Assembly: GCA_963718235.1 (NCBI GenBank) | Contig: CAVQYR010000002.1 | Span: 736,001 to 800,000, forward strand | Source: an uncultured Actinomycetota bacterium | GTDB lineage: Bacteria; Actinomycetota; Actinomycetes; JAHEKZ01 | Direction of reading: 5' to 3' | DNA length: 64,000 bases | In this document: piece by piece, positions 29,047 through 61,185 of the stretch | Numbering within the stretch: position 1 is the first letter of the stretch | Layout: the number at the start of each line of letters is the position of its first letter | Translations under genes and position numbers: made by a program | The notes under the pieces: model-generated | Told to the model about the DNA's origin: nothing | The model's input: the letters and a program-made list of their open reading frames with translations, nothing else | Database searches by the model: none

Positions 29047-29706
29047 TCACAGGCCCCAGAAGGGGCCGGAGAGACCCGCGTCCCGCAGGTAGTCCTGGGC
29101 GACCGACGGCTCGCGCCTGACGTAGCCGCGATCGAGCCGTCCTTCGTACCACCGCGAGGCGAGCCGCCACAGGGTCGGCAGATCCATCACATAGCCCTCG
29201 GCCTGGTGGGTCCGAACCAACCACTCCGCGACGCAGCTGGGGGAGCAGAAGACCCTCTGGTTGCCGCAGGTGTGGACGACGTCGTCCCACATCTGCGCCG
29301 CCGGGACGAGGAAGTGGGCGACCTGGTCGCCCACCGGCGGCCGCTCGCGTCCCACGGACCACGCGTGGGGTCGGGCACATGCGGGGCAACGAGTGGCGAC
29401 GAGGACCTCGTCCTCCCAGGGCAGCAGGTGCGGAAGGGCGAAGGAGTCCCAGGCGCACCCACCCCACCACAACGTGTTCTGGCCCATCACCGAGAAGCCC
29501 AGCGGGACGGAGGAGAACGGGTGGGCCATGACGATCGCACCGTCGTCGCCCAGCACCACGTGTCGGTTCCTCGCCAGGGCACCCAGAGCGTCGTCGACCT
29601 CCGACGTATCGACGCCGAACCGGTCCGCCAGATCAGCGGTGCTGGGTGCACGGCCCGCGCGGCTGAACGTCTCGTACACGGCAAGGCGTACGTCCTCGGC
29701 ATCCAT
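29047..29706 (-). CDS. organomercurial lyase (MerB)-like protein
   Basis: N-terminal HTH, AHPFS, CAWD (cf. MerB C-x2-D), CPAC, HTC...FC. Confidence 0.78.
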   Translation of the reverse strand: MDAEDVRLAVYETFSRAGRAPSTADLADRFGVDTSEVDDALGALARNRHVVLGDDGAIVMAHPFSSVPLGFSVMGQNTLWWGGCAWDSFALPHLLPWEDEVLVATRCPACARPHAWSVGRERPPVGDQVAHFLVPAAQMWDDVVHTCGNQRVFCSPSCVAEWLVRTHQAEGYVMDLPTLWRLASRWYEGRLDRGYVRREPSVAQDYLRDAGLSGPFWGL

Positions 29707-29723
29707 CGGGACCTGCCGGCGCG

Positions 29724-30191
29724 CTACAGCACCAGGGGCTTGATCGGGGCGGCGATCAGGCTCGGGTCGCTGCGCCAGTCGACGCCGGGCACGTCGATGT
29801 AGAGCTCGATCTCGTTGCCGTCGGGGTCGGCGATGTAGAGGCTGTGCGTCACCGTGTGGTCGCTGGCGCCGAGCACCTCGACGTCGTTCGCCTTCAGCGT
29901 CGCCAGGGCTTCGCGCAGCTCGTCGTCGCTGTCGCCGACTTTGAGTCCGAAGTGGTAGAGACCGACGCGGCGACCGGCCGGGAGCGTTGCGGCGTCTGGC
30001 CCGACCTCGATGAGCAGCAGCTCGTGATGCGTTCGGTCAGAGGGCGCCGAGAACCCTGCTGCCCGAAACGGCAGCGGGTCGGCACCGCCACCGAGGATCG
30101 CCCGCCAGCCGAGCACGTCGCGGTAGAACCGCACCGAACGGTCCAGGTCTCGGACATAGAGCACCAAGTGACCGAGCTCTTTGATCTCCAC
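29724..30191 (-). CDS. VOC/glyoxalase family protein
   Basis: LGHLVLYVRDL..S..FY..VLG, YHFGL, DPDGNEIEL. Confidence 0.88.
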   Translation of the reverse strand: MEIKELGHLVLYVRDLDRSVRFYRDVLGWRAILGGGADPLPFRAAGFSAPSDRTHHELLLIEVGPDAATLPAGRRVGLYHFGLKVGDSDDELREALATLKANDVEVLGASDHTVTHSLYIADPDGNEIELYIDVPGVDWRSDPSLIAAPIKPLVL

Positions 30192-53527: not shown

Positions 53528-54286
53528 ATGGACTCCACCGATACGACGCCACCGTCGTCGCCGGCCGGGGCCGCCGTCGGAGACATCCGCCCGTCAGGAC
53601 ACCGCCGCAAACGGTCCCACTCGGGCTCGTTCTGGCGAGAGCTCCCCGTACTCGTTCTGATCGCGCTGGCCTTGGCACTGCTGCTCAAGACCTTCCTGGT
53701 GCAGGCTTTCTACATCCCCTCCGGGTCCATGGAGAACACTCTCCAGGTCGGCGACCGGGTCCTGGTCAACCGGATGGTCTACCGGCTGGGCGACATCGAG
53801 CGCGGTGACGTCATCGTCTTCAACGGCGTCGACTCCTGGACTCCGGAGGTGCAGATCGCCGAGCCCTCCAACCCGGTGGCCAAGGTCGTGTCGACGATCG
53901 CCGGAGCGTTCGGCTTCGCCACGCCCAACGAGAAGGACTTCATCAAGCGGGTCATCGGGATCCCCGGCGACCGGGTGAAGTGCTGCGACAAGCAGGGGCG
54001 GATCCAGGTCAACGGCGTGCCCCTGGACGAGACGTACCTGTTCCCCGGTGACAAGCCTTCGGAGCAGCAGTTCGACGTCGTCGTGCCCGAGGGCCGGGTC
54101 TGGGTGATGGGCGACCACCGAGGAGCGTCGTCGGACTCTCGCTACCACCTGGGTGACCCCGGGGGTGGGACGATCCCGATCGACCACGTGGTCGGCAAGG
54201 CCTTTCTGGTCGTCTGGCCGTTCAGCCACTTCGCCCCCCTGCCGGCTCCGGACACCTTCAGCCAGCCCGGTCTGACCGACCAGTGA
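53528..54286 (+). CDS. lepB: signal peptidase I
   Basis: TM, IPSGSMENTL, IKRVIG, GDHR..S.DSR. Confidence 0.95.
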   Translation: MDSTDTTPPSSPAGAAVGDIRPSGHRRKRSHSGSFWRELPVLVLIALALALLLKTFLVQAFYIPSGSMENTLQVGDRVLVNRMVYRLGDIERGDVIVFNGVDSWTPEVQIAEPSNPVAKVVSTIAGAFGFATPNEKDFIKRVIGIPGDRVKCCDKQGRIQVNGVPLDETYLFPGDKPSEQQFDVVVPEGRVWVMGDHRGASSDSRYHLGDPGGGTIPIDHVVGKAFLVVWPFSHFAPLPAPDTFSQPGLTDQ

Positions 54287-54326: not shown

Positions 54327-55025
54327 GTGACTGACCCCGAGGAGTCGGTCGTGCGGCCCCGTCGGCAGCGACACGTCGTGGTCGAGACGGCGGTCATCAT
54401 CGTGATCAGCCTGGTCATCGCCGCCTTGGTGCGGGCCTTCGTCGCCCAGGCGTTCTACATCCCCTCCGGTTCGATGGAGAACACCCTCCTCGAGGGTGAC
54501 CGGATCCTGGTGAGCAAGGTGTCGCTGTGGTTCGACGACATCGACCGTGGCGACGTCGTGGTCTTCGAGGACCCGGGCGGCTGGCTGGGAGCGCCGCGCG
54601 CGGCGTCCGCCAACCCGGTACGCCGATTCCTGGAGTTCGTCGGCGTGGCACCGTCGAGCACCGAGGGCGACCTGGTGAAGCGGGTCATCGGCGTTGCAGG
54701 TGACGAGGTCTCGTGCTGTGACGCGCAGGGCCGGGTGACCGTCAACGGCCAGCCGCTCGACGAGCCCTACCTGTTTCCTGGCGACGACCCAGCCGACTGC
54801 CCGGAGGGCCAGTGCCGGTTCGACGTCACGGTCCCCGAGGGCTCGCTGTGGGTGATGGGTGACCATCGCACGGTGTCCGGCGACTCCCGGGTCCAGCCCA
54901 GACGCACCCAGTTCGTGCCGGAGGACCTCGTCGTCGGGCGGGCGGTCGCCGTGTTCTGGCCGCTGAGCCGGCTCGCCTGGCTGGGCACGCCGGACACCTT
55001 CACCGATCGACTCGACCCGGGCTGA
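54327..55025 (+). CDS. lepB: signal peptidase I (paralog)
   Basis: IPSGSMENTL, VKRVIG, GDHRTVSGDSR. Confidence 0.94.
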   Translation: MTDPEESVVRPRRQRHVVVETAVIIVISLVIAALVRAFVAQAFYIPSGSMENTLLEGDRILVSKVSLWFDDIDRGDVVVFEDPGGWLGAPRAASANPVRRFLEFVGVAPSSTEGDLVKRVIGVAGDEVSCCDAQGRVTVNGQPLDEPYLFPGDDPADCPEGQCRFDVTVPEGSLWVMGDHRTVSGDSRVQPRRTQFVPEDLVVGRAVAVFWPLSRLAWLGTPDTFTDRLDPG

Positions 55026-56064: not shown

Positions 56065-56813
56065 CCGCGGGCCGGGCACCCAGCGTGCGGGTCGAGCGAG
56101 CACTTATGCGTGACGGGCATGTCCTGGTGGCCGGCATGGACGAGGTGGGCCGGGGTGCACTTGCCGGTCCGGTGAGCGTCGGCGTCGCGGTGGTCGCCGA
56201 TCCCGTCGGTCGAACGCCGTCGGGGCTGCGCGACAGCAAGCTGTTGACACCGGAGGCCCGGAACCGACTGGTCCCTCGGATCCGGCGCTGGTCGGTCGCG
56301 TCCGCGGTCGGCCATGCAGGAGCCGGCGAGATCGACGCGTTCGGGATCATCGCAGCGCTGCGCCTGGCTGGTCTTCGGGCCCTGGCGGCGCTGCCCCAGC
56401 GCCCCGACGTCGTGCTGCTCGACGGCAACCACGACTGGCTGTCGTCGTCCCCGCAGGGGTCGTTGTTCGACACCGATGCCGCCGACGACGCGGAGGTCCC
56501 GTCCGTCGTGACCCAGGTCAAGGCCGATCTCCGCTGCTCGGTCGTGGCCGCGGCGAGCGTCCTGGCGAAGACCGAGCGCGACCACCACATGGTGGCTCTG
56601 TCCGCCAGTCATCCTCGCTATGCGTGGGCCGAGAACAAGGGCTACGCCGCGCCGGCCCACGTCCAGGCGTTGGCCCAGCACGGACCGACCGAGCTGCACC
56701 GACGATCGTGGCGACTGCCGGGCTGCGGCCCGGACGGCGGTGACGGCTGGAACCCGAGGTGGGAAGAGAGCCCTCACGACGAACCGCCATCGACCACGAT
56801 CGTTGTGCCATAG
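56061..56813 (+). CDS. rnhB: ribonuclease HII
   Basis: [37 protein letters not shown]. Confidence 0.96.
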
Positions 56814-56821
56814 TGCGGCCC

Positions 56822-57196
56822 ATGACTGCAATCGCCCGGCTGGCCTGGACGGCCATCGACTGCCCCCGCCCGCGTCAGCTCGCCGGCTTCTACTCGGCCA
56901 TCACCGGCTGGCCGATCGACGACAGCGCCGCCGACGACGAGTGGGTGACGTTGGTCAGCGACACGGGTGCAACCTTGGGCTTCCAGCGGGTCGACGACTA
57001 CCAGCCGCCGCAGTGGCCCGGCCAGGAGCACCCGCAGCAGGCCCATCTGGACTTCGAGGTCGACGACCTCGACGCCGGTGAGGCCGCCGTACTGGCCATG
57101 GGTGCGCGTAAGCACGCGGTGCAGCCCGGTACCGACTTCCGGGTCTACCTCGACCCCGACGACCACCCGTTCTGCCTCATCCTGCCTGGCGGTTAG
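56822..57196 (+). CDS. VOC/glyoxalase-like protein
   Basis: AIDC, LAGFY, QQAHLDF, VYLDPDDHPFCL. Confidence 0.87.
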   Translation: MTAIARLAWTAIDCPRPRQLAGFYSAITGWPIDDSAADDEWVTLVSDTGATLGFQRVDDYQPPQWPGQEHPQQAHLDFEVDDLDAGEAAVLAMGARKHAVQPGTDFRVYLDPDDHPFCLILPGG

Positions 57197-57213
57197 GCGC
57201 CGAAGGAGCCAGA

Positions 57214-59139
57214 TCAGCCCGAGGACGTGACGGCGATCCGGTCCAGGCTGGGCTCGGTGTTCGCCTGGTCGATCGAGAACGCGGTGACGTTCGTCCCGGC
57301 GAGCCGCACGGTCTGCCGACTGACCACGGGGACGATTGCGACCAGCTTCGAGGTGAGCCACTGGTCCAGGTGGGCCCAGCACGTTGGTGCCTGTGCAGGG
57401 AGAGCTGCGATGCATCGGTCGTAGTCGGACTGCACGCTGGGCACGTGCGTCACCGACATCCCCGCCCGCCGCAGTGCGCCGGGAGTCGCGCCCATGGCAG
57501 TGACCGCTAGGGCGCCGCCACGACCACTCGTGTCGGTGAGGAAGGGCTGGAACAGCGAGCCAGTGCCCGGGTAGTCGGCAATCCAGCCGAAGAAGCAGGC
57601 CACCATGTGGCTGGTGGGGCGGGAGCAGTCCTTGCGCTCGAACCGAAAGTCCGTGACGACGAACCGCGAACGAAGGCCGATGACCTCCATGGCGTCGGTG
57701 AGCTCATCCATCGGAGCGCCTCCGATGATCACCGGCCGGCAGGCCGCTGCCACGCAGTGGCCGTCTCGCCAGTAGCGGGACTTGCGCATCTCCGCCAAGG
57801 CCAGCTGTTGACGTGAGGCGGATGAGTCCACGAGGTCGGGTTGCCACCCGGCGAGCAGGTTGTCGCTGAGGGCATTGGGGACGAGATGGGAGGTCACCGG
57901 CCCGAACTGCACCCCCGTCTCGGCCAGCGACTCCTGGAGTCCCTGCCGGTCCAACGCAAGCGCGTAGGCGCGTCGCACGTGCACGTCGTCGAAGGGTGGC
58001 TGAGCGAGGTTGAAGGTCACCCAGCTTGTTCCGTTGCTCTCGCTTCGGTAGACCCGTGCGCGCTCCTCCGGCGTGCGGTACCGGGCGAGCTCCTCGAGCG
58101 ACGGGTCCTCACCGATCACGGTGTCCACGGAACCGTCGCGCAGGCCCTCGTACGGGTTCTGCCGGGGCTCGATCGTGATCTCGATCCGGTCCGGATAGGC
58201 CGGCCGGTTCGGGTCGGTGGCGGAGTCCCACGACGGGTTCCTGACCAGGACGAGCCGCCCGGGGCTGGGCGGGTCGAACCACCACGCCGGAGTGAAACCG
58301 GCGGCCGGCTGCTGCTGGTCGGGCGCAAGCGTGAAGTCGACCTGGTCAATCCCCTCGATCATGTACGGACCGGTCGACACCTGGAAGGGGCCGTAGCCGT
58401 CGTTGAGCGGCCGCTCCGGGTGCTCCTGGTCGAGCTGGAGCGTGTGGCCGGTCGCGACGCCGAGAGGGGCCGTGGGGTCGCTCGGGGACGGGGGGATCGG
58501 CGCACTGAACGCCATGGCCATGAGGTCGACGATCGAGCGGTCGGGACGTGTCTCGCGCAGCTGCAGGGTGTGGTCGTCGACCGCCACAGCACCGGCGATG
58601 GAGTCCGAGCGGCCGGCCACGAACGCCTCGTAGCCCTCGAGCAGTGGTTTCAGGTAGCCGAGTCCGGGGCCGTTTGCGGCCGCTGACCGCTCCAGCGCGC
58701 GCACGAAGTCGGCGGCGGTGACCTCGACGTCCTCGAGGGGTGGGGAGTAGTGGATCCCGGATCGCAGGTGGAAGGTCCAGGTGCGACCGTCTACCGACAC
58801 CGTCGGCGGCCCCTCGGCAAGGTCGGGGACCGCCCGGAACCCTTCGAAGCCCGGCAGGCCGCGGAAGGTCATGAGGGTGCGCTGCAGGCAGCAGCGCAGC
58901 ACCTCGAACTGGTCGAACATGTACGCGGCCTCCGGGTCGAAGCCGGCGTACGCGGGTTGGGGCATCGCCACGTGCAGCGTGCCACCAGGCGACGGCTCGG
59001 TCACCGCAGCCGCAGCGCGAGGCGAGGCGGTGCCGAGCGGTGGAGCAGCGACGGCCGCGACAGCGACCAGCCCAGTGACCAGCACCGCCAGCGCCAGCAA
59101 GGCAGTGGGCACGGGTCGCCACATCCCTCGGGCGGCCAT
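57214..59139 (-). CDS. orphan family-5 (peptide/nickel-type) solute-binding protein
   Basis: Signal peptide, PDLA...VS.DGRTWTFHLR.GI, TGPY, L.RNP.W, FN..QPPFDDVHVRRA..LALDR; TGATG overlap with the cyclase gene. Confidence 0.85.
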   Translation of the reverse strand: MAARGMWRPVPTALLALAVLVTGLVAVAAVAAPPLGTASPRAAAAVTEPSPGGTLHVAMPQPAYAGFDPEAAYMFDQFEVLRCCLQRTLMTFRGLPGFEGFRAVPDLAEGPPTVSVDGRTWTFHLRSGIHYSPPLEDVEVTAADFVRALERSAAANGPGLGYLKPLLEGYEAFVAGRSDSIAGAVAVDDHTLQLRETRPDRSIVDLMAMAFSAPIPPSPSDPTAPLGVATGHTLQLDQEHPERPLNDGYGPFQVSTGPYMIEGIDQVDFTLAPDQQQPAAGFTPAWWFDPPSPGRLVLVRNPSWDSATDPNRPAYPDRIEITIEPRQNPYEGLRDGSVDTVIGEDPSLEELARYRTPEERARVYRSESNGTSWVTFNLAQPPFDDVHVRRAYALALDRQGLQESLAETGVQFGPVTSHLVPNALSDNLLAGWQPDLVDSSASRQQLALAEMRKSRYWRDGHCVAAACRPVIIGGAPMDELTDAMEVIGLRSRFVVTDFRFERKDCSRPTSHMVACFFGWIADYPGTGSLFQPFLTDTSGRGGALAVTAMGATPGALRRAGMSVTHVPSVQSDYDRCIAALPAQAPTCWAHLDQWLTSKLVAIVPVVSRQTVRLAGTNVTAFSIDQANTEPSLDRIAVTSSG

Positions 59140-60719
59140 CAGCCCACCTCTGCGACGACGACCCACGGTCGCCCTGCGTCGTCGACCGCCACCGCCACGG
59201 GTGCTCCGTCGACGGGAAACGTCCCCGTGACCGACCCGTCCGTCGGGTCAAGGGAGACCACATGCTCCGAACCTCCGCAGGTGACCCAGACCTGCGTCGA
59301 CGTCACCGCGAGATCGGTAGGGGCATCACAGCGAGCGCCGAGCTCGAGACGCAGTCGGGAGTCTCCGCCGGCCGAGAGCGAGAGCAGAGTGTCGTTGGGC
59401 TGGCTGGCCACCCAGACCGTCCCGTCCGGGGCGGTGGCGATGGCGGACGGCACGGCCCCGCCGGTTGAGAAGGCGGAGACCTCCGGTCGGCCACCGGATG
59501 TCTCGACCTTGAACACCGAGGGGCTCCGGCCCGCCGCCACCCAGGCGGTGTCTCCTCCTGCGACGACCGCAACGTCGACCGGTCCGGACGCGGCGGGCAC
59601 GGGGACCGAGGCGACCGAGCTGGTCGTGGTGTCGAAGCGTGTGACCACGGCGTCGCGAGTGGCCACGAACCACACGGCTCCGTCGGCGGCGTCCGTGGCT
59701 GACGTTCCGTCCGGCACGATGAACCCGGCGGGAGCAACCCCAGCGCCGCCGGACTGCAGTACGCCGACCCTTCGGTTGGGGTCGGAGCTGAAGCCAAAGG
59801 TGACCCAGACCTGGTCGGCCGTGTGGGAGAGGCCCGTCGGCGGGGCCGGTGTGCCGTAGACACGGACCGAGGCATCGTCGGTGACCACGACCTCCGAGAC
59901 CGTCTGTGAGCGAACGTCTGCAACCCAGACCTTGCCGTCACCGGTGGTCACCGCCTGGGGTGATCCGCCGGGCTGAAGGGCGACGGCCAGGTCGAACCCC
60001 GAGCCGTCAGCGGCAACGCGCGCCACAGAGTGGGCCGAGGGAACGACGGTGGTGCTGCGGGTGGCTCGCCACCCGAACCAGCCACCGATCACCAGCACCA
60101 GCACGGCGGCTACCACGACCGGCCACCAACGACGCCGCGCGCTCGATGCGGCGGTCGCCCCGACCGAGGCGCGAAGAGCAGCACCCTCTTCGGGCGGGAG
60201 CGGCTCAGGGCGGTCCACGTTGTCCACGGAGGTGACCTCGTACACCTGCCAGGGCTGCTCGACGCCCTTCAGTGTCTGGACTCCGTGGTCCGTCAGCCCG
60301 AACCCGGCGCCACGGGTCAGCTCAGCCACGGTGCTCGTGACGAGGACGTCGCCAGCGGTGGCCAGTCCCATCACCCGCGCGCCGACCACCACCGTGATGC
60401 CCGAGAGCTTGCCATCGGCCGGCTCACACTCACCGAAGTGGACGCCGGCGCGGATGCCGACCCCGAGCGCTCGCATGTCGTCGGACAGCAGGCAGGCGCA
60501 GCGAACGGCCGAGCCGGGGTCTGCGAACGAGGCGAAGAACCCATCACCTGCGGTGTCCAGCTCCTTGCCGCCGAGCTCCTTGAGGCGACGGCGCACGATC
60601 CGGTGGTGCTCGGCCACGAGACTGCGCCAACCCTTGTCGGCGAGCTCTTCGGCGAGCCGGGTGGAGTCGACGATGTCGGTGAACAACACCGCCGCAAGGA
60701 CCCTGCCCGCACGCGCCAC
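59139..60719 (-). CDS. class III adenylate/guanylate cyclase, single TM, extracellular beta-propeller
   Basis: LFTDIVDST, AGDG, IRAGVHFGE, GAR, LKGV; TM after RRR; repeated P..VA...G.VWVA blades; -10 CACAAT 6 nt before GTG. Confidence 0.88.
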   Translation of the reverse strand: MARAGRVLAAVLFTDIVDSTRLAEELADKGWRSLVAEHHRIVRRRLKELGGKELDTAGDGFFASFADPGSAVRCACLLSDDMRALGVGIRAGVHFGECEPADGKLSGITVVVGARVMGLATAGDVLVTSTVAELTRGAGFGLTDHGVQTLKGVEQPWQVYEVTSVDNVDRPEPLPPEEGAALRASVGATAASSARRRWWPVVVAAVLVLVIGGWFGWRATRSTTVVPSAHSVARVAADGSGFDLAVALQPGGSPQAVTTGDGKVWVADVRSQTVSEVVVTDDASVRVYGTPAPPTGLSHTADQVWVTFGFSSDPNRRVGVLQSGGAGVAPAGFIVPDGTSATDAADGAVWFVATRDAVVTRFDTTTSSVASVPVPAASGPVDVAVVAGGDTAWVAAGRSPSVFKVETSGGRPEVSAFSTGGAVPSAIATAPDGTVWVASQPNDTLLSLSAGGDSRLRLELGARCDAPTDLAVTSTQVWVTCGGSEHVVSLDPTDGSVTGTFPVDGAPVAVAVDDAGRPWVVVAEVG

Positions 60720-60858
60720 CCCGGCATTGTGTCCCAGCGGCAGGCGTCTGGTGCCCGTTTGACCACCGGATGTCCCCACCTCTGACCCCGGGCGCCCACG
60801 GTCGTACGCTGCCCGCGGGACCACTTCCTGGCCCTCGAGCAGAGAGGACAGCAAGGTC

Positions 60859-61185
60859 ATGAGTGCTGAGGACCTCGAACGCTACGAGGCCGACCTGGAG
60901 CTGCAGCTGTACCGCGAGTACCGCGACGTGGTCGGCCTGTTCGCCTACGTGGTGGAGACCGAGCGGCGCTTCTACCTCACGAACCACGTCGACCTGCAGG
61001 TGCGGGGCACCGACACCGGTGAGGTGTTCTTCGAGGCCACCATGAGCGACGCCTGGGTGTGGGACATGTACCGGCCGGCTCGCTTCGTCAAGAACGTCAA
61101 GGTCCTGACCTTCAAGGACGTCAACGTCGAGGAGCTGGCCGCCACCGACCTCGAGCCCCCCAAACCGCTCGGTTTCGACCGCTGA
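60859..61185 (+). CDS. DUF2469 family protein
   Basis: MSAEDLERYE..LELQLYREYRDVV, DAWVWDMYRPARFVK. Confidence 0.93.
   Translation: MSAEDLERYEADLELQLYREYRDVVGLFAYVVETERRFYLTNHVDLQVRGTDTGEVFFEATMSDAWVWDMYRPARFVKNVKVLTFKDVNVEELAATDLEPPKPLGFDR

Follow-up and report, generated by a model that had tools for sequence, protein, structure and literature searches.

Several bacterial membrane receptors respond through a separate extracytoplasmic solute-binding protein (SBP). The pairs described in the accessible text of a 2021 review on SBP signalling include DppA–Tap, AibA–TlpB, CBP–ChiS, NspS–MbaA and GlnH–GlnX–PknG; the stimulated receptors are chemoreceptors, sensor kinases, GGDEF/EAL enzymes and a Ser/Thr kinase, and the SBP docks on TarH, Cache, HBM or four-helix-bundle domains (PMC8050422). 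The same text holds no occurrence of the word “propeller” and mentions adenylate cyclases in its general introduction only. Here we analyse two adjoining minus-strand genes in a 64,000-nucleotide stretch (“the window”) from the genome of an uncultured Actinomycetota bacterium of the JAHEKZ01 lineage (assembly GCA_963718235.1, contig CAVQYR010000002.1, positions 736,001 to 800,000). The first gene encodes a nucleotide cyclase domain of class III joined through one membrane helix to a beta-propeller, and the second encodes an SBP of family 5.

Other described systems resemble parts of this arrangement. According to the available part of a study on the PknD sensor, pknD lies in a predicted operon with the SBP gene pstS2, and its sensor propeller is six-bladed (PMC3322341). 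In Paracoccus denitrificans, the periplasmic beta-propeller AztD hands zinc to the SBP AztC, as stated in the accessible text on that pair (PMC6689063), and kinase fusions to SBPs of other families were catalogued in 2005, as far as the accessible source goes (PMC1262709). The accessible portions of the literature on cyclase/SBP/propeller and BTAD/propeller combinations, on PknD sensors and on SBP signalling describe no cyclase- or SARP-linked sensor made of a propeller and a family-5 SBP.

The two genes of the window are a real, conserved receptor module, as indicated by its domain make-up, the pairing or fusion of its parts, the separate clade of its SBP, its insertion as a unit and the predicted complex of its products. 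We think it fairly probable that they form one sensory unit, in which a single-pass receptor cyclase has a transporter-less, exported family-5 SBP as its ligand-dependent partner.

Domain make-up of the cyclase and its neighbour

The product of the first gene scores 30.1 bits against Guanylate_cyc (PF00211; cut-off 21.9). The profile of 29 homologous sequences that represents this gene finds the cyclase homology domain of Rv1900c as its best match in PDB (1YBT, E = 7.8e-65), followed by Ma1120. The AlphaFold2 model of the whole protein (mean pLDDT 90.2, pTM 0.60) contains a cyclase fold at residues 7–165 and a juxtamembrane helix, and Foldseek superimposes the cyclase part on 1YBU_B with a TM score (target) of 0.96, a root-mean-square deviation of 1.0 Å and 42% identity. 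No variation is seen at D15, D59 and R115 among the 29 aligned sequences; in line with the established roles in the class III family, we take the two aspartates to be metal-binding and R115 to be the transition-state arginine. Among 69 cyclase homologues (41 fused and 28 split), the first metal Asp is present in 68, with an alignment gap in the remaining one, and the second Asp and the Arg are present in all 69. The retention of these residues argues for catalysis by the cyclase domain.

The window protein carries D55, K104 and V111 where canonical class III adenylate cyclases have Lys, Asp and Asn. At the Lys position, 67 of the 69 homologues have Asp or Glu and none has Lys; the second specificity position is variable, and the Asn position is occupied by Val (as in the window), His or Asn. 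About half of the fused forms combine Glu at the Lys position with the canonical Asn. Since the ATP-specifying Lys position holds Asp, we file the protein as a nucleotide cyclase and not as an adenylate cyclase. Guanylate cyclases typically carry an acidic residue at this Lys position, and the PDB titles for Ma1120 include a “KDA to EGY” mutant, which offers a comparison for such a site. The product may thus be a nucleotide other than cyclic AMP (cAMP).

One can suggest that the cyclase-like domain is a pseudo-enzyme, serving as a cytoplasmic dimerisation or interaction module and making no cyclic nucleotide. The residues at the Lys, Asp and Asn positions and the low Pfam score would agree with this, and in the same family the cytoplasmic module can also be a DNA-binding SARP or a kinase. 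However, the near-complete preservation of the metal Asp residues and the Arg would hardly be expected without catalysis. In Rv1900c, too, the Lys (Asn instead) and the Asn (His instead) are missing, and its PDB entry is that of an adenylyl cyclase binding a substrate analogue; Sinha et al. are said to have found in 2005 that Rv1900c is active and that those two residues are dispensable. We consider a pseudo-enzyme quite improbable and prefer a probably active nucleotide cyclase.

Behind the cyclase domain, an RRR triplet is followed by WWPVVVAAVLVLVIGGWFGW, and the AlphaFold2 model has the hydrophobic helix at residues 199–219. The following 28 strands, modelled at residues 231–523 with pLDDT above 90, amount to seven blades, and seven Trp residues spaced by about 42 residues do not vary across the 29 aligned sequences. 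Between the output domain and the propeller, 38 of the 40 cyclase-type fused relatives and 66 of the 68 of SARP type have a single hydrophobic segment. Since the cyclase needs cytoplasmic nucleotide and the chain has a single helix, the propeller should lie outside the cell.

The propeller exceeds the cut-off of Vgb_lyase (PF24684; 54.7 bits against 50). Its profile matches designed Pizza propellers, an archaeal YVTN propeller, the PknD sensor (E = 8.7e-19) and virginiamycin B lyases in PDB, and its model resembles seven-bladed Vgb lyases and YVTN propellers, with 2Z2N, 1L0Q and 1RWI among the PDB matches. The propeller itself might be the primary binder, or an enzyme for some extracellular compound, with the SBP as an accessory that receives its ligand or product, or that in the unliganded state holds the receptor off, a behaviour described for CBP and ChiS. 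The Pfam match and a fold like that of streptogramin lyases and lactonases would suit such a role; the accessible sources offer a precedent for hand-over from propeller to SBP in AztD–AztC (PMC6689063) and list CBP–ChiS among the SBP–receptor pairs (PMC8050422). The pairing, fusions and predicted complex described below fit this explanation equally well. Yet the identity to a Vgb lyase is just 16–17%, the propeller is also similar to the non-enzymatic PknD sensor and the YVTN surface-layer propellers, and no data favour an information flow that begins at the propeller over one that begins at the SBP. We regard a propeller-first order as unlikely and retain the SBP as the supposed ligand binder.

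This SBP matches SBP_bac_5 (PF00496) with E = 5.9e-36 and 124.8 bits against a cut-off of 32.4, and its nearest solved structure is OppA2 of Streptomyces clavuligerus (2WOK, E = 8.6e-61). An N-terminal hydrophobic segment is present, and eight conserved Cys residues fit an extracytoplasmic protein; the lipobox Cys found in most homologues with a complete N-terminus is absent from the window SBP and from P0124. The whole window has no match to PF00528 or PF00005, and no ABC component occurs among its Pfam-scanned called genes. The genome contains five Opp/Dpp-type systems, and five of its six SBP_bac_5 genes have BPD_transp_1 permease genes no more than about 4 kb away; the window SBP is the sole one of the six without a nearby permease, the nearest being 88 kb away.

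An earlier first-pass annotation, made from the DNA letters without database searches, had read the first gene as a class III cyclase followed by RRR, one transmembrane helix and a propeller, and the second as a family-5 SBP with no ABC permease or ATPase gene in the 64 kb. Pfam, the PDB profile and the AlphaFold2 model agree on the first gene, and the family assignment and the lack of transporter genes hold as well.

Conservation of the pairing and the predicted complex

Full-length matches to the receptor were found in two of 41 related genomes, with two in G005 and one in G035. A scan of species-representative genomes gave 80 loci, 12 of them with a propeller, of which one is cut by a contig end; with the two G005 loci added, 13 cyclase–propeller loci besides the window could be assessed. 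An SBP is adjacent or fused to the cyclase–propeller gene in 11 of them. It forms part of a single open reading frame (ORF) in four loci (1086 aa in L015, 1057 aa in L018, 1045 aa in L019 and 1057 aa in L030) and is encoded directly beside the receptor in seven (L016, L020, L021, L028 and L075, and with two SBP genes each L013 and L064). None of the 66 loci that have the same cyclase domain and no propeller carries an SBP homologue in its fetched flanks. No Opp-type permease lies beside the 13 cyclase–propeller loci, where the only ABC genes are an ABC-F-type ATPase and an unrelated CBS-type system. Two further neighbours were seen in these loci: a cNMP-binding-domain protein about 3 kb upstream of the module in L020 (818–1408) and a methyl-accepting chemotaxis protein adjoining the SBP in L013 (2985–5120).

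Within the class, the SBP clade is rare among the sampled genomes, as judged by profile matches: against 401 genomes, the SBP profile found, besides the window genome (G000) and G005, only two weak matches (G176 and G363, 27–29% identity), on contigs of 2.1 and 5.5 kb that hold no propeller. For this reason the reverse test was made on metagenome contigs scanned with the SBP profile alone, which gave 89 SBP genes in 79 loci. Thirty of these genes lie beside a propeller gene, with cyclase, SARP or kinase N-domains where visible, and 28 beside OppB/OppC; 6, with flanks of 1.5 kb or more, have neither as a neighbour, and for the other 25 the flanks are too short for a decision. The propeller-linked genes are thus 30 of the 64 with a classable neighbourhood. 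The 28 permease-linked SBP genes sit in operons of the order OppC–SBP–OppB–OppD–OppF. This order is unusual; it is seen in the sister-clade loci L138–L140, L143–L145, L147–L150 and others, and also in the window genome’s own Opp operon (L098, G000:C2:346000-356000).

The two kinds of neighbourhood are separated in a maximum-likelihood tree of 95 SBP rows (quick search mode, midpoint rooting), from which 10 of the 89 genes were left out as shorter than 450 residues or holding a stop, and to which 11 reference SBPs and 5 fused SBP domains were added. The clade of the window SBP (52 rows, SH-aLRT 99) comprises 38 propeller-linked, 14 unknown and no permease-linked rows; 10 of the 38 were found via the cyclase and are hence not independent of it. 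Its sister clade (33 rows, SH-aLRT 95) comprises 24 permease-linked, 9 unknown and no propeller-linked rows.

The propeller–SBP combination is widespread. In the protein collection, full-length clusters of the receptor architecture number at least 120, and the SBP clade also has at least 120. The propeller–SBP part of the fused L019 protein matches 2210 proteins at E ≤ 1e-20 and 2123 representative clusters (50% identity) at E ≤ 1e-30. The best 150 representatives were classed with domain pieces of L019 and of L096, a SARP-type fusion of 1107 aa from the relative G034; they include 68 SARP–propeller–SBP, 40 cyclase–propeller–SBP and one SARP–cyclase–propeller–SBP proteins, while 41 have no recognised N-domain and are mostly short fragments. 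Two of the 41 are Ser/Thr kinases by Pfam, P0435 being complete and P0380 starting partway into the kinase domain. Pfam searches with 22 representatives confirmed the SARP type in eight of eight cases (Trans_reg_C/BTAD), with Trans_reg_C itself in seven of the eight. The members come mostly from soil and sediment actinobacteria known from metagenomes alone.

Two single proteins deserve mention beside these classes. P0404 (1293 aa) unites Trans_reg_C and BTAD, Guanylate_cyc, a propeller and SBP_bac_5, that is, both outputs in one chain. A 944-aa protein of L097 (1196–4030, minus strand) has SBP_bac_5 at residues 449–840 behind a 448-residue N-terminal part without a Pfam match and may represent a further architecture of the family.

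The position of the pair in the genome speaks for its movement as a unit. In the window, the cyclase and SBP genes, together with a VOC gene, lie between rnhB and DUF2469. These two genes adjoin each other in all 29 relatives’ loci, directly in 27 and with a VOC gene alone between them in 2; the 29 include L105 and L106 from the unpublished genomes G025 and G033, without which the count is 25 direct and 2 with VOC, out of 27. The cyclase and SBP genes occupy this site only in the window genome among the loci compared; the same-genus genome G001 has no insert there, and in G005 the orthologous cluster is about 80 kb from that genome’s own DUF2469. Since rnhB and DUF2469 are adjacent in the relatives and the pair is found between them only here, we regard it as an insertion that moved as a unit. 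The VOC gene, which two relatives carry alone at the site, is probably a separate passenger outside the module.

For the complex prediction, the propeller (residues 245–526) and the SBP (55–641) were each given their own alignment, and three controls were run. The three predictions reached ipSAE values of 0.78, 0.74 and 0.74 (median 0.74) against 0.00 for the best control. Of 157 solved complexes, 116 attain the ipSAE mark used, as do 2 of 215 mismatched pairs; since the alignments were our own, these counts apply only roughly here. The runs coincide in 95% or more of their contacts, with a partner pLDDT of at least 84. On one face of the propeller, loops from every blade would touch SBP residues 116, 417, 426–436 and 571–598. 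A fused ectodomain of the L019 type (806 aa) was modelled as a single compact body with a linker of about ten residues (pLDDT 92.2, pTM 0.90). We take it as likely that, as these models predict, the SBP docks on the propeller of the membrane cyclase.

The first-pass annotation had proposed to look for co-occurrence or fusion of the SBP with helix–propeller genes of cyclase, kinase or SARP output, and to predict a complex of propeller and SBP. The outcomes agree with its idea: the pairing holds in 11 of 13 loci against 0 of 66 without a propeller, SARP and kinase fusions with propeller and SBP exist, and the predicted complex scores well above its controls. The adjacency of rnhB and DUF2469, which it had given for many actinobacteria, holds in every relative’s locus compared. 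The first-pass annotation had also said that its idea would fall if the SBP homologues sat mostly in opp/dpp operons; this is the case in the sister clade only and not in the clade of the window SBP.

The sister clade brings up a more conventional role, in which the SBP is an ordinary transport protein for a distant Opp/Dpp-type ABC importer, its position next to the cyclase is due to co-regulation or to chance, and the propeller has a different stimulus. The closest relatives do sit in OppC–SBP–OppB–OppD–OppF operons, the genome holds five candidate importers, the nearest solved relative is the peptide-binding OppA2, and the residues of the predicted interface have no special conservation. 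This role does not account for the 52 clade rows, none of which lies beside permeases and 38 of which lie beside propeller genes, nor for covalent propeller–SBP fusions with three different outputs in thousands of proteins. The complex prediction, moreover, passed its controls, and the cyclase–SBP pair moved jointly into a housekeeping locus. We hold a purely transporting SBP to be very unlikely; a double role in signalling and transport, which the accessible text of the 2021 review reports for other SBPs (PMC8050422), would be compatible with the receptor module.

For this module we suppose the following sequence of events. The SBP would have descended from an Opp-type transport SBP and lost its own transporter. 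It would bind an extracellular ligand, probably a peptide-like compound, and sit on one face of the propeller, and the liganded state of the complex would alter the pairing of two receptor chains across the membrane. Since the active sites of class III cyclases form at the dimer interface, altered pairing should alter the synthesis of the cyclic nucleotide (cAMP, cyclic GMP (cGMP) or both). The 3.17-Mb genome has 12 Guanylate_cyc and 13 cNMP_binding matches, a large toolkit for its size, and the latter provide candidate cyclic-nucleotide readers of the signal. Ligand binding by the SBP, its ligand-dependent docking, control via cyclase dimerisation and the nucleotide made are steps that we infer.

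Several observations weigh against the proposed sensory unit. The cyclase has none of the canonical Lys, Asp and Asn residues, and two of the 13 cyclase–propeller loci (L027 and L063) have no nearby SBP. The window SBP aligns to positions 3–237 of the 368 in PF00496 only, while its orthologues cover the full length. The split SBPs are set apart from the five fused SBP domains, which make up a deep clade of their own; the evidence from fusions therefore links homologous families and not orthologues of the window SBP. All our statements on SBP–propeller binding are predictions, and within the receptor-linked clade the 28 predicted interface positions of the SBP show no higher conservation than its other positions (0.49 against 0.56). 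Not one of the seven interface positions conserved in both clades differs between them. As the interface is not specially conserved, the docking geometry has no independent support, and we claim the partnership alone. A transport role for the SBP, alone or in addition, also has to be reckoned with in view of the transporter-linked sister clade and the five Opp/Dpp-type systems.

Layout of the locus and surrounding genes

The features of the locus are collected in Table 1. The cyclase reading frame ends with GAG GTG GGC TGA, its stop codon at 59141–59139, and the SBP gene starts with the ATG at 59139–59137, so that the A at 59139 is common to the stop and the start. This one-base overlap, together with the GAGGTG directly 5' of the ATG, fits translational coupling of the two genes. 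A GTG at 59166 was rejected as the SBP start: the ATG has the GAGGTG before it and aligns with the N-termini of the homologues.

Table 1. Features of the cyclase–SBP locus; positions are counted from the first nucleotide of the window
Feature	Position	Strand	Basis or remark
Receptor cyclase gene, 526 aa	59139..60719	-	cytoplasmic class III cyclase, one transmembrane helix and extracytoplasmic seven-bladed beta-propeller (predicted topology)
Cyclase homology domain, aa 7-165, Rv1900c type	60225..60701	-	profile against PDB, Foldseek
One transmembrane helix, aa 199-219, with RRR (aa 195-197) before it	60063..60125	-	AlphaFold2 model and sequence
Seven-bladed beta-propeller, aa 231-523, Vgb_lyase/YVTN/PknD-sensor-like; predicted SBP docking face	59151..60029	-	
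Orphan family-5 SBP gene, 641 aa	57214..59139	-	
SBP N-terminal hydrophobic export signal or anchor, about aa 1-33	59041..59139	-	
-10-like hexamer CACAAT, candidate promoter of a leaderless transcript	60726..60731	-	read directly
Divergent intergenic region, 139 bp, common to the cyclase gene and DUF2469	60720..60858	.	
DUF2469 gene	60859-61185	+	
VOC/Glyoxalase_6 gene, between rnhB and the SBP gene	56759..57196	+	Glyoxalase_6, E = 2.9e-26

For the cyclase gene we adopt the in-frame GTG at 60719–60717, which is preceded by CACAAT (60731–60726) and six nucleotides, since the N-terminus that follows from it (M-ARAGRVLAAVLFTD) aligns with those of the homologues and the ATG at 60860 would abut the DUF2469 start at 60859. 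A start at this ATG was rejected, as it would also add 47 residues that are absent from the homologues. The hexamer, the six-nucleotide spacing and the GTG without a Shine–Dalgarno sequence constitute a leaderless signature. All eight homologous receptor genes with a placeable start have an xAxxxT hexamer 6–7 nucleotides before the aligned start; it is of the CAnAcT type (A at position 2, T at position 6) in the window and in L016, L019, L021, L028, L030, L064 and L075, even though the proteins are only 31–47% identical. Leaderless expression seems to be a trait of the receptor gene family. At first pass, a two-gene minus-strand operon with a leaderless promoter had been noted; the stop/start overlap and the succession of CACAAT, six nucleotides and GTG given there are present as described.

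Scans of positions 56700–61000 added little at the G+C content of the window (about 70%): a search for E. coli-type promoters gave none and is uninformative at this composition, and a search for terminators gave two terminator-like sites within the SBP gene, which is chance level and equally uninformative.

The rest of the window is a housekeeping stretch with ilv, leu, gltX, recG, rnc, smc, ftsY, ffh, rpsP, rimM, trmD, rplS, two lepB genes, nudix and rnhB, and, on the other side of the inserted genes, DUF2469, yraN and comM. Three details of it may be recorded. The large subunit of acetolactate synthase is split over two overlapping plus-strand ORFs in different frames (210–1244 and 1174–1968), one with TPP_enzyme_N/M and the other with TPP_enzyme_C, which may be due to a frameshift or an assembly error. 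Tandem signal peptidase I paralogues (Peptidase_S26; 53528–54286 and 54327–55025, plus strand) lie directly upstream of nudix–rnhB. Finally, an alkylmercury-lyase (MerB) homologue (29047–30191, minus strand) adjoins a second VOC/glyoxalase gene in an otherwise housekeeping region.

Comparison with known systems

The closest solved relative of the window cyclase domain is Rv1900c (LipJ) of Mycobacterium tuberculosis (1YBT/1YBU). Both lack the canonical Lys and Asn and keep the two metal Asp residues and the Arg; however, at the sites of Asp55 and Val111 of the window protein, Rv1900c has Asn and His, and its second specificity Asp is retained at the site that is Lys104 in the window protein. 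Rv1900c also differs in being soluble and fused to an alpha/beta-hydrolase domain (according to the PDB molecule names), without a membrane helix, a propeller or an SBP partner. On the side of the binding protein, OppA2 (2WOK) is likewise an actinobacterial peptide-type protein of family 5, but its name refers to clavulanic-acid biosynthesis, no propeller partner of it is known, and it matches the window SBP with modest identity in two stretches.

The plan of the whole receptor is that of PknD of M. tuberculosis (1RWI/1RWL), with a cytoplasmic output, one transmembrane helix and an extracellular propeller. The two propellers are detectably homologous, and the PknD plan is resembled by the kinase–helix–propeller–SBP fusion P0435 within the family of the window unit. 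The available text on PknD gives six blades instead of seven (PMC3322341), its output is a kinase, and the SBP encoded nearby is a phosphate-binding PstS, from a different SBP family and part of a transport locus. No report of a contact between PknD and an SBP was found in the accessible literature on its sensor.

A broader proposal, which we make tentatively and consider more doubtful than probable, is that the propeller and the family-5 SBP form a portable extracytoplasmic sensor cassette of Actinomycetota with at least three outputs (a cNMP cyclase, a SARP transcription activator anchored in the membrane and a kinase of the Hanks type), that PknD-type propellers generally are docking platforms for ligand-loaded binding proteins and not direct receptors of ligands, and that the acidic Lys site marks guanylate or dual-specificity cyclases. 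If this were true, the long-orphan PknD sensor would bind its operon partner PstS2. The module also supplies PknD and similar propeller sensors with a working hypothesis.

AztD and AztC resemble the module in the direct interaction of a propeller with an SBP, but AztD, in the accessible description, is a soluble zinc chaperone for an ABC importer (PMC6689063), with no signalling output and no family-5 SBP. The SBP-dependent receptors of the 2021 review share the principle: in its accessible text, an extracytoplasmic SBP stimulates a membrane receptor and its gene often lies beside the signalling gene, and family-5 SBPs already act with Tap, TlpB and ChiS (PMC8050422). The family of the window unit differs from them in the propeller as docking domain, in the class III cyclase or SARP output and in its many covalent fusions. 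SBP-assisted sensing has been known for chemoreceptors, histidine kinases, enzymes of cyclic di-GMP metabolism and one kinase system; cyclic-nucleotide cyclases, SARP regulators and docking on propellers are not among the SBP-stimulated receptors in the accessible text of that review (PMC8050422).

The module belongs to a large family of bacterial sensors, undescribed in the accessible literature, by which an outside chemical would be converted into an inside signal. One very common extracellular unit is joined here to three unrelated outputs, which gives a candidate route from an outside ligand to cAMP or cGMP, to the transcription of SARP targets (often those of secondary metabolism) or to protein phosphorylation. 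The split form in the window is handy for its dissection, since the receptor and the binding protein can be made separately and mixed.

Among eukaryotes, the plan of the window receptor resembles that of the receptor cyclases, such as the GRESAG4/ESAG4 adenylate cyclases of trypanosomes and the guanylate cyclases that are receptors of natriuretic peptides. These have a binding-protein fold outside, one transmembrane helix and a class III cyclase inside, and are active as dimers; the trypanosome catalytic domains 1FX2 and 1FX4 are among the PDB matches of the window cyclase. In the eukaryotic proteins a binding-protein fold of type I is attached directly to the helix, whereas in the window unit a propeller is placed between the helix and the SBP, which belongs to family 5 and is a separate polypeptide. 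By analogy, we suggest that the module would work like the SBP-dependent receptors of bacteria and the receptor cyclases of eukaryotes, with a new docking domain and new outputs.

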